Shown: positions 2,453 through 18,538 of the stretch, piece by piece
How the letters are laid out: every line of letters begins with the position of its first letter
Numbering within the stretch: position 1 is the stretch's first letter
IMG/VR virus record: IMGVR_UViG_3300016484_000060
Coordinates: 1-29,919 of that record
Length of the DNA stretch: 29,919 nucleotides
From: a virus
Lineage: Duplodnaviria; Caudoviricetes
Direction: 5' to 3' (one strand)
Position numbers and translations under genes: made by a program
Notes under the pieces: model-generated
Database searches by the model: none
What the model was told of the DNA's origin: nothing
Seen by the model: the letters and a program-made list of their open reading frames with translations, nothing else

Positions 2453-3059
2453 CTTTTAAACCCTTTAGTTTAGTTACTGTTTCGTCTACTTCTTGTAAGA
2501 AAGCAGACACTTCTTTCTCAAGATTCGCAATGTATTCATCGTCTCGATTAACTCGGACAACAAACAACTGCAAATCTTCAGGAAGTCTAGGGTCAAATGA
2601 AACAAAATCGCACCAAGCTCTGCCTGTTACTGCCATTTGTGTTTGCATTTGAGGTATATATTTACTAGGCGCTTTGCCTGATAGGATAGTCTCAATGGCT
2701 GTCTTAGAGTTTGGGCATTTAATCTCAATCAACCCATCATCCCCTACAAGACCATCAGGAGAGCAACCAAACATAGCAATAGACGAATGGTCAATAAATC
2801 CTACTTCATCAACTAAGACGCTTTTGTGAGCTTCATAAGCCATGCGAGCTTGAGGTTCAGTATCTGTACCCCATTGCATTGCATCATTCATATAAAGCTC
2901 GGCTTGCTGCCCTGTTAATCTTTCAACAACTAGCTCTGTTAAATAGTTAGCTCTTGAAGCACTAACACCTGTCTTTGTCTTTGCTAGGACATCAGCGACT
3001 CGGCTTGCTGTAACCTTGCCAAGTCTTGCCTTAAACCATTCTTCTGTTCTTTGTTCCAC
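2439..3059 (-). CDS. YqaJ / lambda-exonuclease family recombination nuclease
   Basis: QRTEEWFKARLGKVTAS, WG..TEP.AR, CSPDGLV, IEIKCP and QMQ motifs. Confidence 0.92.
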   Translation of the reverse strand: MEQRTEEWFKARLGKVTASRVADVLAKTKTGVSASRANYLTELVVERLTGQQAELYMNDAMQWGTDTEPQARMAYEAHKSVLVDEVGFIDHSSIAMFGCSPDGLVGDDGLIEIKCPNSKTAIETILSGKAPSKYIPQMQTQMAVTGRAWCDFVSFDPRLPEDLQLFVVRVNRDDEYIANLEKEVSAFLQEVDETVTKLKGLKDGNN

Positions 3060-4923: not shown

Positions 4924-5199
4924 ATGTATGCAAAAAAAGTAGATTTAACTCAAAAAGAGATAGTAGCAGCCCTTAGAAAAATGGAGTGTAGCGTATTCCA
5001 TTTACATACAGTTGGTCAAGGGTGTCCTGATTTATTAGTCGGGATTGACGGAAGAACATACCTTGTAGAAGTCAAAAAAGACGAGAAAGCCAAGTATACA
5101 GATGCTCAGTTAAAATTTATGACTGAATGGCGAGGTGCGCCTGTGGTTCGACTAAATTCTGAGAAAGATGCTATTGCATTTGTAAATTCTGTGATATAA
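4924..5199 (+). CDS. VRR-NUC / PD-(D/E)xK nuclease (resolvase-like)
   Basis: GCPDLLVG...LVEVK...TDAQLKF motifs. Confidence 0.82.
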   Translation: MYAKKVDLTQKEIVAALRKMECSVFHLHTVGQGCPDLLVGIDGRTYLVEVKKDEKAKYTDAQLKFMTEWRGAPVVRLNSEKDAIAFVNSVI

Positions 5200-5202
5200 A
5201 CT
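5174..5202 (+). promoter_or_regulatory. sigma70-like promoter for replication operon
   Basis: TTGCAT (5174-5179), 17-nt spacer, TAAACT (5197-5202). Confidence 0.55.
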
Positions 5203-5209
5203 TACCTTA

Positions 5210-5323
5210 ATCGCTTGGAGGCGATAGAGAGTAAGCCTTAGTCAGCAATCTGCACCTACTCGGTGTCCTCCAACGACAATGCCGCTACATTGTTGAGATT
5301 GCTGTCTAGGGCTTTTGTTTTTT
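5210..5323 (+). ncRNA. structured 5' leader with potential pseudoknot and terminator-like end
   Basis: multiple stems and 7-nt loop complementarity TTGGAGG (5215-5221) / CCTCCAA (5267-5273); U-rich tail just before the SD. Confidence 0.65.
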
Positions 5324-5334
5324 AAGGAGTAAAA

Positions 5335-6117
5335 ATGCCCAATAGATTGCTTAAAGAAGGCATTGTAGATTCGTCTTTGATTGATAATTTATCAGCCGAA
5401 GAAGAAGTATTTTTTTACAGATTGCTAGTAGTATCCGATGATTTTGGTCGCATGGATGCTAGAACAGCTATCTTGAAGTCAAGATGTTTTCCATTAAAAG
5501 AATTTAAAACTGAAAAGATTGATGGCTGGTTGCGGTCACTTGTCAGACATGGGTTAGTCACTATGTATAAAGTTGATGACAAACCATATTTACAAATTCT
5601 TAAATGGGAACAAAGAGTTAGAAGCAAAGGCAAGTATCCATCGCCTGATGGCTCACAACCTATTGACATTGTGCTGACAAATGACAGCGAATTGCTGACA
5701 GATGACGGCTTGGGTAAGGGTTTGGGTAAGGGAAAGGGAATGGGTAATGGGGGTAGCCGAGCTACAAGAATGGCTAATGATTTTCAATTACCTGATTCTT
5801 GGATAGAGTTCTGCAAAGAAAATAGACCTGATTTAGACCCACAAGCTACATTCTTAGAGTTTAAAGACTATTGGATTGCAAAAGCTGGTAAAGATGGTTG
5901 CAAAACCGATTGGGAAGCAACTTGGAGAAATTGGGTTAGAAGGGCATTTAGTAAGCCTGTTGTAAGCAAAAAGTCGGATGATAAGGCTTGGATGTTTAGC
6001 AATCAAGGTATAGAAGCTAAAGCAGTAGAGCTAGGAGTTAATACCTATGGTGTAGCTAACCACCAACAGTTGAAGGACAAGATTTTGCTAGTTATGGCTC
6101 AAAGGAATCTGCAATAG
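5335..6117 (+). CDS. phage replication initiator (lambda O-analogous)
   Basis: N-terminal RLL.VSDDFGR helical domain, central low-complexity repeats, C-terminal FKDYW...DWEATWRNW motif; position at start of rightward operon. Confidence 0.75.
   Translation: MPNRLLKEGIVDSSLIDNLSAEEEVFFYRLLVVSDDFGRMDARTAILKSRCFPLKEFKTEKIDGWLRSLVRHGLVTMYKVDDKPYLQILKWEQRVRSKGKYPSPDGSQPIDIVLTNDSELLTDDGLGKGLGKGKGMGNGGSRATRMANDFQLPDSWIEFCKENRPDLDPQATFLEFKDYWIAKAGKDGCKTDWEATWRNWVRRAFSKPVVSKKSDDKAWMFSNQGIEAKAVELGVNTYGVANHQQLKDKILLVMAQRNLQ
5672..5753 (+). repeat. putative origin: iteron-like repeats plus G-tract array
   Basis: TGCTGACARATGACRGC at 5672 and 5693 (21-nt period); seven G3+ runs at 5712-5753. Confidence 0.55.
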
Positions 6118-8514: not shown

Positions 8515-8599
8515 ACACACAGGATTTATGCAGAAATTCAACAATGGACTAAACCAAAGGTGGCTGTGTTGTAGTTGTAAGGAAAAAATAGTAGAATAA
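8429..8599 (+). CDS. small zinc-finger protein (56 aa, not in ORF track)
   Basis: CDNC...WLCCSC; overlaps the Q-like gene by 86 nt and fills the gap after it. Confidence 0.55.
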   Translation: MVGHDYNEKLIGKYQETRLCDNCRTKQPKHTGFMQKFNNGLNQRWLCCSCKEKIVE

Positions 8600-8664
8600 A
8601 TACAAAAGCCCTAATAGCTGGACACTAAAAGGGCTTTCTAAACACAACAACTGGAAAGGAGTTG
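8569..8664 (+). promoter_or_regulatory. promoter and leader hairpins of the HNH gene
   Basis: TTGTAG-17-TAGAAT (8569-8597); hairpin AAAGCCCT/AGGGCTTT; hairpin CAACT-GGAAAGG-AGTTG covering the SD. Confidence 0.55.
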
Positions 8665-8666
8665 AT

Positions 8667-9164
8667 ATGTCTGACAAGTATTTTACATTCACAAAAGAAA
8701 AATTGCATAGTATTTTTTGCTATGAAAATGGTAATCTTTTTTGGAAAAGTCATAAATACAAAGCATACATTGGCAAAAAAGCAGGAACATTAAATCCTAA
8801 TGGGTATATTTATATATCTATTAATTCAAAGCAATATTTTGCTCATAGATTAATTTTTTTAATGAATCATGGGTATCTGCCAAAAACTATTGACCACATA
8901 AACAATAATAAATCAGATAACAGAATAGAAAACTTACGACCAGCTACCATTTCTGAAAATGGTTTAAACAGGAAAACATCTAAAAATAATTCTAGTGGTG
9001 TAAAAAATGTTGCTTGGTGTAAATCTTCAAAAAAATGGAAAGTTAGTATGACTGTCAATGGTAAAGATAAATACTTTGGTGTATATGATAATTTAGAATT
9101 AGCCGATTTAGTTGCTCAAGAAGCTAGAGATAAATTTCATGGAAAGTTTGCTAGACACAAATAG
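8667..9164 (+). CDS. HNH homing endonuclease with AP2-like C-terminal domain
   Basis: AHRLIF...IDHINNNKSDNRIENLR, then NNSSGVKNV.W...KW....YFGVY...A..AR..FHGKFA; AT-rich. Confidence 0.9.
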   Translation: MSDKYFTFTKEKLHSIFCYENGNLFWKSHKYKAYIGKKAGTLNPNGYIYISINSKQYFAHRLIFLMNHGYLPKTIDHINNNKSDNRIENLRPATISENGLNRKTSKNNSSGVKNVAWCKSSKKWKVSMTVNGKDKYFGVYDNLELADLVAQEARDKFHGKFARHK

Positions 9165-9291: not shown

Positions 9292-9669
9292 ATGGACAAG
9301 AAACCTATGATTATGATTGGCTTGCTCGGTGGTAAGCCTGAAATGGCTGAAAAGAAAGAGGGCGGTCTCTTAGAAGCAGATGTAGAGTCTTGTCCTTTAG
9401 CTACACAAAACGAAACCATTAACGCTGGCAACAAAGAAAAAGCTATTGTTGTAGCCAAGTATGGTAAGCGCACAGACGCACAATGTAAGTCTTGCGAATA
9501 CTTCTGTACCCCTGACGAAATGCCTAACTGTGGCATCAAGAAGGGTATGGGATTCTGTAAGATTTACGAATTTATGTGTGCAGAATCAAATGGTTGCGAC
9601 TCTTGGGAGTCTGCCGATATGGAAGAAATGGAAGAATCTGAAGAAGAATCAGAGGATTACGAAGATTGA
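9292..9669 (+). CDS. Cys-rich protein with HiPIP-like motif and acidic tail
   Basis: QCKSCEYF...GFCKIY...NGCDSW. Confidence 0.55.
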   Translation: MDKKPMIMIGLLGGKPEMAEKKEGGLLEADVESCPLATQNETINAGNKEKAIVVAKYGKRTDAQCKSCEYFCTPDEMPNCGIKKGMGFCKIYEFMCAESNGCDSWESADMEEMEESEEESEDYED

Positions 9670-10298
9670 TTCCTAAAGTCCTACACTTTGTTTGGATTGG
9701 TGACGAGTCGAAAAGACCCGATAACTGTATTGATACTTGGCGAGAACTAAATCCTGATTACGAAATCAAGATTTGGGGAAACAAGGAACTCAAAGAAAAC
9801 AAGTGGTATAACGCTAGACACATGATGGCTATGGCAAAGCAAGAGCTTTGTGGAGTAGCAGATATGATGCGTTATGAAATCCTGTATGAGCATGGTGGAA
9901 TCACAGTCGATGCAGACTCTATCTGCCTAGCACCATTAGAGGATTGGTTATTAAAGCCTGATGCTTTTAGTCATTGGGAGAATGAGTTAGTGCGCCCTAA
10001 CTTAATACAAGTCAGTTTTATGGGGTCTGTGCCAAAGAATGTATTTTTTGGTCACTTGATTGAGACACTAAAGCACAAAGAAACAGTAGTAGATTCAATG
10101 GCTTGGGAGTCAGTTGGAACTAAGTTTATCTCTGAAATGTATAGAGAAACTGGTTATCCGCTAACGATTTACCCTAGTCATTACTTTAGCCGAGACCATT
10201 TCACAGGGCATAGCTACGAAGGGAATGGTCATTGTTTCGCTACTCAATTATGGGGTAGCACCAAAAACAACTATGATGAGATATGGAAGATAAAATAG
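9666..10298 (+). CDS. glycosyltransferase, GT32 / OCH1-like (DxD sugar-binding)
   Basis: IPKVLHFVWIG, ADMMRYEILYEHGGITVDAD motifs. Confidence 0.88.
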   Translation: MIPKVLHFVWIGDESKRPDNCIDTWRELNPDYEIKIWGNKELKENKWYNARHMMAMAKQELCGVADMMRYEILYEHGGITVDADSICLAPLEDWLLKPDAFSHWENELVRPNLIQVSFMGSVPKNVFFGHLIETLKHKETVVDSMAWESVGTKFISEMYRETGYPLTIYPSHYFSRDHFTGHSYEGNGHCFATQLWGSTKNNYDEIWKIK

Positions 10299-10909
10299 AA
10301 CTCAGAGATGGTTGGTGGTGGGCTAAAGACGATAAAGAAGGATGGGAATGGATTCCCTATGAACACACATTCTTTCACCAGTTAGTCAGATGGGTTGGTG
10401 GCAGAGATACAGTAGTTCAGGCTGGTGCTAACTGTGGCATTTGGATTAGAAGTTATGCACAAGAGTTCAAGAATGTTTACACATTTGAGCCTGATGATAT
10501 TAATTTTGAGTGTTTAAAGCGAAACATTACCGAGCCTAATGTTGTCATGCAAAAGGCTGCTCTAGGCGATAAAGTAGGACATTGCCATACTGTCGAGAAC
10601 ATTAAAGGCAATATGGGCGCTCAGAGGATTGAGCTAGGTGGCGATGTTCCTGTAGTCAGAATAGATGATTTACCACTAGAAGCCTGTGATTTAATCCAGT
10701 TAGATGTAGAGGGTTACGAGCATCAAGCTGTCTTAGGTGCGCTAGAAACAATAAAGAAATTCAAGCCTGTAGTAATATTAGAACTATGTGGTCATGGTCA
10801 GAAGTACGGATTTACCGACCAAGACACTATAGAAATGATGGAAAGTTTGGGCTACAAGATGGCTCAAAAAGTCATATCAGACTTAATATTTATCCCAAAG
10901 GAGTCGTAA
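10283..10909 (+). CDS. FkbM family SAM-dependent methyltransferase
   Basis: VQAGANCG, YTFEP, AALG, DLIQLDVEGYE..AVLGA..TI.KFKPV..LE motifs. Confidence 0.9.
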   Translation: MEDKIELRDGWWWAKDDKEGWEWIPYEHTFFHQLVRWVGGRDTVVQAGANCGIWIRSYAQEFKNVYTFEPDDINFECLKRNITEPNVVMQKAALGDKVGHCHTVENIKGNMGAQRIELGGDVPVVRIDDLPLEACDLIQLDVEGYEHQAVLGALETIKKFKPVVILELCGHGQKYGFTDQDTIEMMESLGYKMAQKVISDLIFIPKES

Positions 10910-17591: not shown

Positions 17592-17915
17592 TTGTCTAAA
17601 TTAGGCAATCTCGGCAACAATAAGACAGCCTACGCTGATGGCGATGGCGGACTAATTATTGAGACTAAAGTAGACCTTAGCGACTTTATCGCTGAGACAC
17701 AAGCTCAATATAAGAATAGAAGTGGTAGCACAGGATGGGGAGATAACCCACTTGATGAACGCAATAAGATTGCTACCATACCACCTGAAATCATAGAAGA
17801 CTTGAATCGTAAAGGCATCATGCGTGGCTACTTCATCGTAGACGAGCCAGCCATGAAGCGATGGTTAAACGACCCGATTAATCAAGTATTCCGTACTAGG
17901 GGTGGAAAAGTTTGA
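17592..17915 (+). CDS. hypothetical virion-module protein
   Basis: TTG start at 17592 after AGGAGAGG; ends WLNDP.NQVFRTRGGKV. Confidence 0.75.
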   Translation: MSKLGNLGNNKTAYADGDGGLIIETKVDLSDFIAETQAQYKNRSGSTGWGDNPLDERNKIATIPPEIIEDLNRKGIMRGYFIVDEPAMKRWLNDPINQVFRTRGGKV

Positions 17916-18538
17916 AAACAGTTGCTATTTGCATACCTGCTAGAGGGCAGATGGAAGTAGGAACTGCTTTTGATTTAGCTCGGATGGTCAATCATGTAGC
18001 CAGAAAAGGTGAAATACAGGTCAATCTGTATACATCTATGGGAACTCTGATATTTGACCAAAGAAACAATATGGTGGAATCAGCCCTAGAAGAAGGTGCT
18101 GATTATGTGCTTTTTATCGATGCAGATATGCGCTTTCCGAAAGATACGCTAGAAAGGCTTATATCGCACAATAAAGGCATTGTTGGGGTTAATGCTACTA
18201 CTAGGTCAGTTCCAGTAAAAGCGACTGCCAAGCACCTTATAATCGATTCTGATGGCACTTGTAATTGGAAACAGATTAGCTCTAAGAATAAGACAGGTTT
18301 ACAGATGGCTGATGGTATCGGCTGTGGGGTGATGTTAATTAGCAGAGAAACCCTAGAAAAGATAGAGAAACCTTGGTTCTTTTTTGAGTTATTACCTGAA
18401 AACAAGCTATTAGGCGAAGATATTTACTTCTGTGTCAAAGCAAAAGATGTAGGAATTGACACATTTATAGACCATGATTTATCACAAGAGATAGGTCATG
18501 TTGGCTCATACACTTACGGATGGCATGACATATCATGA
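17912..18538 (+). CDS. glycosyltransferase family 2-like (GT-A fold)
   Basis: VAICIP, RN..VE.AL..GADYVLFIDADM (DxD), G.GVMLI.R, GEDIYFC. Confidence 0.8.
   Translation: MKTVAICIPARGQMEVGTAFDLARMVNHVARKGEIQVNLYTSMGTLIFDQRNNMVESALEEGADYVLFIDADMRFPKDTLERLISHNKGIVGVNATTRSVPVKATAKHLIIDSDGTCNWKQISSKNKTGLQMADGIGCGVMLISRETLEKIEKPWFFFELLPENKLLGEDIYFCVKAKDVGIDTFIDHDLSQEIGHVGSYTYGWHDIS

Follow-up and report, generated by a model that had tools for sequence, protein, structure and literature searches.

In accounts of the plasmid ColIb-P9, a GGCG hairpin loop pairs with a downstream CGCC to switch rep on, and Inc RNA bound to the same loop switches it off (PMC4705826); the target-loop motif is given as UUGGCG (PMC4705826; PMC10724649). 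The CI RNA of phage P4 is described as being cut from a transcript and pairing with seqA and seqC, with termination before the replication genes (PMC4825925; PMC3632133); it terminates by pairing with the upstream seqA, and represses the replication genes by premature termination (PMC4825925). C4 is reported as an RNA of three stems and two recognition loops that RNase P processes (PMC5320573), and IsrK of Gifsy-1 as a terminated short RNA that activates translation through orf45 (PMC4825925). Among catalogued RNAs, c4-2 is listed as a distant homolog of a known RNA (Weinberg 2017; PMC5737381), DNAVirus_187 as an anonymous candidate, and DNAVirus_4653 as a 124 nt candidate with 43 sequences, 37 of them freshwater and 13 upstream of YdaU/DUF1376 genes (Fremin et al., 2023; PMC10690425).

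Here we analyzed the leader of a replication initiator gene in 29,919 nucleotides of tailed-phage DNA (IMG/VR record IMGVR_UViG_3300016484_000060), the whole of which is referred to as the window. The leader belongs to a family of structured leader RNAs of phage replication operons that is real and strongly supported. Judged on sequence and predicted structure, it appears to be a member of neither the C4/P4 nor the IncI/IncB family, as it has no Rfam match, a different helix order, no second target, no leader ORF, an exposed Shine-Dalgarno (SD) sequence and no conserved antisense promoter. No description of the family was found in a literature search, with the alignments of c4-2 and of Fremin et al. 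lying outside the comparison.

Results

The initiator gene and its structured leader

The window, estimated to be 81% complete, carries its recombination genes on the left, and those for terminase, portal and capsid lie on the right. The initiator gene (5335-6117, plus strand, ATG at 5335) encodes a replication initiation protein of 260 aa (phrog_1408, E 1.5e-25). An endonuclease/resolvase-like gene precedes it on the same strand (4924-5199; phrog_93, E 5e-16; a weak VRR_NUC match fell below the cut-off), and its 3' end overlaps the putative leader promoter. No integrase or CI-like repressor was found in PHROG and Pfam scans of the submitted window ORFs. Elsewhere in the window, glycosyltransferase-like (DXD family) and methyltransferase genes were seen at 9666-10909 and 17912-18538, and a second gene in the structural region was weakly glycosyltransferase-like.

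Folding of positions 5209-5323 on the plus strand gave z = -5.80, with 0/200 shuffles equally stable (5174-5345, z = -5.06), and the fold of the opposite strand was 10 kcal/mol worse. The architecture is a 5' hairpin, P0, followed by a three-way junction closed by a long stem, P1; every helix listed by a first-pass annotation of this DNA was present. P0 (stem 5210-5214/5221-5225, 4/5 pairs covarying) displays the first recognition site, X, as a 6-nt loop (5215-5220, UUGGAG in the window), the seventh base of X being the G that closes P0. The second recognition site, Y (5229-5233), is single-stranded and directly 5' of P1. P1 (5233-5314) consists of P1a (5233-5241/5306-5314), which adjoins a U-run, a 1x1 mismatch (5242/5305) and P1b (5243-5251/5296-5304), and 17/17 of its pairs covary in alignment A2 (see below). 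Within the junction, hairpin P2 (5252-5256/5262-5266), supported by covariation, displays Y' (5257-5261); then come X' (CCTCCAA, 5267-5273), a 7-nt junction strand complementary to X, and P3 (5274-5281/5288-5295), a structural hairpin of variable length and variable loop with 3/4 base pairs covarying. The multibranch structure that had been proposed earlier is therefore there, with the amendment that X' sits in a junction strand and not in a hairpin loop.

The U-run of the putative intrinsic terminator (5313-5323) abuts the SD sequence AAGGAG (5324-5329). Sequence and folds place the SD outside the folded element. The anchor pattern occurs once in the window (0/100 shuffles) and the leader element is single copy there. 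A short hairpin on the minus strand at 8598-8691, with the outer letters of P1a and a U-run (weak match to model R1), is probably a plain terminator.

A candidate sigma70-type promoter is seen at 5174-5202 on the plus strand (-35 TTGCAT, 5174-5179; -10 TAAACT, 5197-5202; alternative TG-extended -10 TATAAA, 5195-5200), which would put the transcription start at approximately 5209-5210. It is weak by consensus and was absent from the output of the consensus promoter scan, which gave no hit to back the promoter and start that had been predicted here. Across the family, however, promoter-like sites cluster just upstream of P0 (96 matches in two adjacent 3-nt bins among 119 listed members, a set that leaves out the window row), suggesting that the RNA likely begins at P0. 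Reading X itself as a -35 box was rejected, with no suitably spaced -10 by eye on either strand and no matching promoter bin.

The Rfam search proposed with the first-pass annotation gave no match for the window in Rfam 15. Searches of 18 homolog loci (E up to 5) also gave none, and the C4 model run alone found nothing in the window even at E 10. A MIR5200 match (22.5 bits, cut-off 70) was dismissed as a chance stem match.

Two long-range pairings covary across the family

At least 154 distinct leaders passed a filter on P0, P1 and P2 only, in three combined scans of viral contigs and metagenome. Scan 1, of viral contigs, used the outer-stem letters alone and gave at least 120 loci; filtering these for an internal CTGC and a T-run, without any long-range pairing, left at least 70 distinct leaders including that of the window. 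Scan 2 dispensed with the outer-stem letters and scan 3 covered the metagenome. In scans 2 and 3 the patterns prescribe purine or pyrimidine at positions of X and X', so the chance level of X:X' complementarity is raised.

In the 70-sequence alignment 98.4% of cells were paired, two-sided changes were present in 24/43 pairs, and the covariation score was 0.397 (0.145 shuffled, at most 0.086 slid). Alignment A2, fitted to the nested structure and more diverse, had 96.3% of cells paired and a score of 0.591. The complementarity of the X loop to CCTCCAA at 5267-5273, read from the window alone in the first-pass annotation and put forward there for comparison among homologous leaders, held throughout: X:X' was 100% paired in the 70 sequences, with three positions co-changing in 10, 10 and 12 sequences, and X' was the exact complement of X in 154/154 listed members. 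The same annotation missed a second covarying pairing, that of Y with Y' (5229-5233 with 5257-5261), for which 5/6 pairs covary and 93.8% of cells are paired in the 70 sequences. In A2 this pairing dropped to 81%, probably because loop-length variants fall out of register. An alignment-free parse gave a mean Y:Y' of 5.98 bp versus 2.91 with shuffled partners (n = 122 listed members; this parse left out members with a short P2 loop, such as the window, which the 154-member set includes). In a held-out metagenome set, X was exactly matched in 26/26 new members versus 7/76 pattern matches failing the structure filter, and in the same 26 members the Y:Y' mean was 5.7 bp versus 2.6 with shuffled partners.

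Bases in the junction and loops vary in step with X and Y, and almost every invariant base is paired. The commonest X loop was UUGGCG (105/154 listed members), and the 154 listed members carried 61 P2 loop variants and 73 X/Y' codes. Nine of the 13 groups sharing identical P1 and P2 stems contained more than one code; five X variants and the 61 loop variants recur on differing stem backgrounds, while kinship inflates the covariation counts. The elements of the window and of locus L030 (1958-2089) are near-identical, differing by one compensatory X/X' change (X at 5215-5220) and a few linker bases, and this pair offers natural material for a comparison of pairing specificity. Faster evolution of the recognition pairs was looked for and not seen: on a tree of the 75/122 rows with canonical geometry, the rates of change of X and Y did not exceed those of the peripheral stems P0 and P3, which gives no support for diversifying selection. 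The covariation fits pairing in cis and in trans alike.

Terminator and knot geometry

P1 was 17 bp long in 91/122 listed members and had a mismatch 8-10 bp below the junction in at least 110/122. The 8 nt after the last G-C pair contained at least 7 T in 115/122, these members having been chosen without a U-run filter, and the U-run is kept while the letters of P1a vary (19 variants). No A-run matching the U-run was seen on the 5' side of the stem, which is the layout of a one-strand terminator. A simple terminator scan of the window misses P1 and its U-run, owing to the long insert within P1.

Y ended 0-1 nt from the base of P1 in 100/120 listed members, and Y' lies at the opposite end of that stem. 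Since Y abuts P1, and P1 ends in the U-run, formation of Y:Y' in cis should exclude the terminator. At 2.8 Å per base pair and 6.5 Å per free nucleotide, a rough distance estimate indicated that Y:Y' in cis needs 3 bp of P1a to be opened if P2 folds back, or 6 bp if P2 stacks; knot and terminator would accordingly be alternatives, and in this model the conserved P1 mismatch marks where the opened segment would end. X' and Y' are made approximately 33-50 nt before the 3' strand of P1a, so the read-through knot would be a kinetic state, and X:X' was part of the minimum-energy fold in intermediates ending at 5275 and 5296. Summed over X and Y, mean stacking came to approximately -21 kcal/mol, and the cost of opening P1a was 17.5 ± 2.6 (n = 115; values free of loop and pseudoknot penalties). 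As the stacking energy is barely above the opening cost, a kinetic antiterminator is the most fitting description of the knot.

The consensus scan gave no conserved reverse promoter, with at most 15 matches in any reverse bin able to make antisense RNA (119 listed members). All three frames of the leader are stopped in the window, and any open frame was present in 42/122 family members versus 62% in shuffles. A search of 75 loci (307,718 bases) for a second, downstream X..Y target gave 7 scattered non-trivial sites, with approximately 3 expected, and none in the window. The linker is 8-14 nt long, and no processing signal for 5' trimming was found. An anti-SD role for Y' or X' was rejected, as GAGTA recurs in the SD region of the window but not across the family.

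Genes behind the leader and occurrence of the family

Among listed members the median distance from the stem to the start codon was 17 nt. Of 67 next genes scanned in listed members, 36 encoded initiator, primosomal or loader proteins of several unrelated families; the others were 6 ParB-like, 6 endonucleases, 1 helicase and 18 ORFs of 66-79 aa without assignment. DUF1376 was present in 17/23 hand-picked next genes. Five of 38 loci with initiator relatives carried the leader (L003, L006, L004, L005 and L030); it stood directly before rep in L003 and L006, and other DNA intervened in L004, L005 and L030. The window's own element (5322) is followed by a different gene in a contig from a DNA run; the one run presumed to be RNA had no contig spanning the element, which argues neither way. 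With the same leader standing before differing genes, it seems that the leader stays while the gene behind it is exchanged.

The close relatives L004 and L005 (2545-3000) and L030 have a different first gene behind the same leader. Together with the frequency of an endonuclease as the first gene (6/67), this suggests an insertion hotspot between leader and rep. The ORFs of 66-79 aa stood right after the terminator in 18/67 cases (for example L041, L046, L049, L108, L109, L112, L114, L117 and L119). Many appear related by eye and could be an accessory regulator; they had 0 PHROG matches, and 0 Pfam matches in the 3 tested.

In L211 (2571-4907), a member with the rare UUGGUG loop follows the gene for a family A DNA polymerase that contains an intein, so the leader is also found in a different replication module. 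Weak R1 matches at L074 (1448-1599, 27 bits) and L116 (1466-1577, 22 bits) have the stem, junction and U-run with no clear X loop, and are possibly distant or unrelated three-way-junction terminators. The closest initiator relative (L001, 75% identity) has a different leader (2845-3000) that is nested in the same manner: within a three-way junction, two hairpins have loops complementary to a 5' hairpin loop and to a linker segment. By eye, an ATG-started ORF runs through that leader to the rep start and its stem has no U-run behind it; the fold gave z = -2.8, with 0 Rfam matches.

Among pattern matches in the genome contigs, 2/16 were real members. One lies within an integrated prophage of Polynucleobacter sp. 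UK-Kesae-W10, which also carries an integrase, a divergent HTH repressor, an initiator and a DnaC-like loader. Such scarcity in cellular genomes is a poor fit to a purely lysogenic-immunity role. Model R2, run over two samples of 151 genomes from the family and genus of G001 with approximately 23 candidates scored per genome, found only G001. The window element had one chance match in the annotated phage collection; the Polynucleobacter member had two partial matches in uncultured phage records, and the plasmid collection gave nothing. CI scans covered the nearest three ATG-started ORFs per locus. No CI-type match was found in 138 upstream ORFs of 50 viral loci (5 were Cro-like), and 98 ORFs of 39 viral loci contained one HTH_3 protein (4 Cro-like), which suggests that the viral loci of the family have no CI beside the leader, within those three ORFs.

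Discussion

The nearest structural likeness is to P4 CI with seqA-seqC and to P1/P7 C4 (RF01695, a1b1 target). These share with the leader a three-way junction within the controlled transcript, in which two recognition segments, one in a hairpin loop and one in the next junction strand, match upstream sites, one of them a loop. The C4 rows and drawing text of PMC2864571 show a similar recognition hairpin and junction, and a target loop of YYUGRYAR compared with CUUGRYRG here. The structural hairpin, however, is 3' of the recognition segments in the leader and 5' in C4. The outer stem of the leader is itself followed by the U-run, a downstream second target (compare seqC and a2b2) and a small ORF are lacking, and the leader directly precedes initiator genes rather than an antirepressor. 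Complementarity to an upstream site of the same transcript was thus found, whereas a match to the Rfam C4 model and a 5' structural hairpin were not.

With ColIb-P9/IncB the leader family shares, in most of its members though not in the window, a UUGGCG hairpin loop that pairs with a downstream CGCC before an initiator gene, and in both the cis pairing is predicted to be activating and trans binding to the same loop repressing. It differs in its transcriptional layout, its two pairings, and the lack of a leader peptide and of a counter-transcript promoter; the would-be repressor is the leader itself. IsrK offers a further analogy, as a terminated short RNA would act in trans on its own read-through transcript, but the leader has no Rfam match and no ORF, and the predicted sign is negative. 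The DNAVirus_4653 rows describe a 124 nt element and give no terminator or mechanism, and our leader model has 125 positions. With DUF1376 next genes in both, the leader family may already be catalogued as DNAVirus_4653, without name or mechanism, a comparison made by description only.

Our cautious working model, for which we see an even chance, is a self-targeting RNA attenuator, in which a double pseudoknot in cis gives read-through and the terminated leader RNA restores termination in trans. Transcription would start at the P0 hairpin. X pairs with X' and Y with Y', as the covariation shows. From the geometry, Y:Y' in cis would hold the 5' strand of P1a open, so that no terminator forms and the initiator gene is transcribed. 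Terminated transcripts would release a three-way junction of approximately 105 nt displaying Y' and X', perhaps 5'-trimmed; in an untrimmed product X might reach X' in cis across the 8-14-nt linker and so mask it. The released RNA would bind X and Y of new transcripts and block the knot, leaving P1a free to close and terminate. A naive cell would see a burst of initiator followed by shut-off, with code-specific exclusion of like phages. We infer both the polarity and the trans action of the leader RNA.

A purely cis-acting attenuator, in which elongation speed, pausing or a protein sets the balance between knot and terminator, the RNA arises as a by-product and the codes are subject to neutral drift, is possible though on the unlikely side. 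It would account for all of the covariation and for X and Y changing no faster than P0 and P3, and it agrees with the lack of a second target and with the closeness of the knot and terminator energies. It needs an additional trigger, however, and no conserved protein partner is present upstream or downstream; moreover, the leader's own putative promoter means that a short RNA showing X' and Y' would be made anyway, and the loop and junction resemble known antisense modules. The opposite polarity, with termination as the default and the short trans RNA switching the operon on, seems improbable to us. It has a precedent in IsrK, where a short terminated RNA activates the read-through form of the same transcript (PMC4825925), and the full-length fold is the terminator state, but binding of X and Y leaves both strands of P1a free, with no evident block to the terminator, and IsrK acts on translation via a leader ORF, none being conserved here.

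The first-pass annotation had likened the leader to the IncB/IncI rep leaders, and the commonest loop, UUGGCG, is indeed the target-loop motif reported for ColIb-P9, with a CGCC partner before the rep gene. An arrangement of that type, in which a separate counter-transcript across P0 would repress what the knot activates, is nevertheless very doubtful: reverse promoter matches downstream of the element reach at most 15 per bin against 96 forward (119 listed members), and the translational gating of the original comparison finds no support, as the SD and start codon lie exposed downstream of the stem and neither a leader ORF or peptide nor a conserved antisense promoter was found. We also think it very doubtful that the element is a stand-alone small RNA with its own terminator and with host or phage targets elsewhere, the knot being structural or protective. 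The promoter-to-terminator unit of approximately 105 nt and the varying next gene would suit this, yet the tight spacing to the start codon and the replication context are kept, and Y:Y' is incompatible in cis with a closed stem. The riboswitch-like element and the ribozyme that had also been suggested have in their favor the double-pseudoknot topology next to a terminator. Both hardly deserve credence, since nearly all invariant bases are paired, so that neither a fixed pocket nor a catalytic core is left, since bases of the junction and loops change together with X and Y rather than being fixed, and since Rfam gave no match. Among the options raised at first, an attenuator with a released terminated product is the most likely reading of this conserved replication-operon leader.

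Extending the self-targeting attenuator to the whole family, we suggest tentatively, and with less than even confidence, that in a widespread aquatic phage family mostly without a recognizable CI by the replication module, one RNA of approximately 105 nt would serve as promoter-proximal switch, terminator and repressor. With cis knotting and trans binding in competition, it would be an RNA-only counter of phage copy number in the cell, and its 70-plus X/Y codes would define immunity groups. If true, this would be the most compact antisense attenuator of its kind, with target, antiterminator, terminator and regulator in approximately 105 nt right in front of phage replication initiators, and it would link the copy-number logic of IncI plasmids with the RNA immunity of P4/C4 phages. 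Dozens of RNA switch codes, natural and possibly orthogonal, would become available from the family, one member of which is present in a sequenced Polynucleobacter isolate. For phages without an evident CI, it would be a way to limit replication or to exclude kin.
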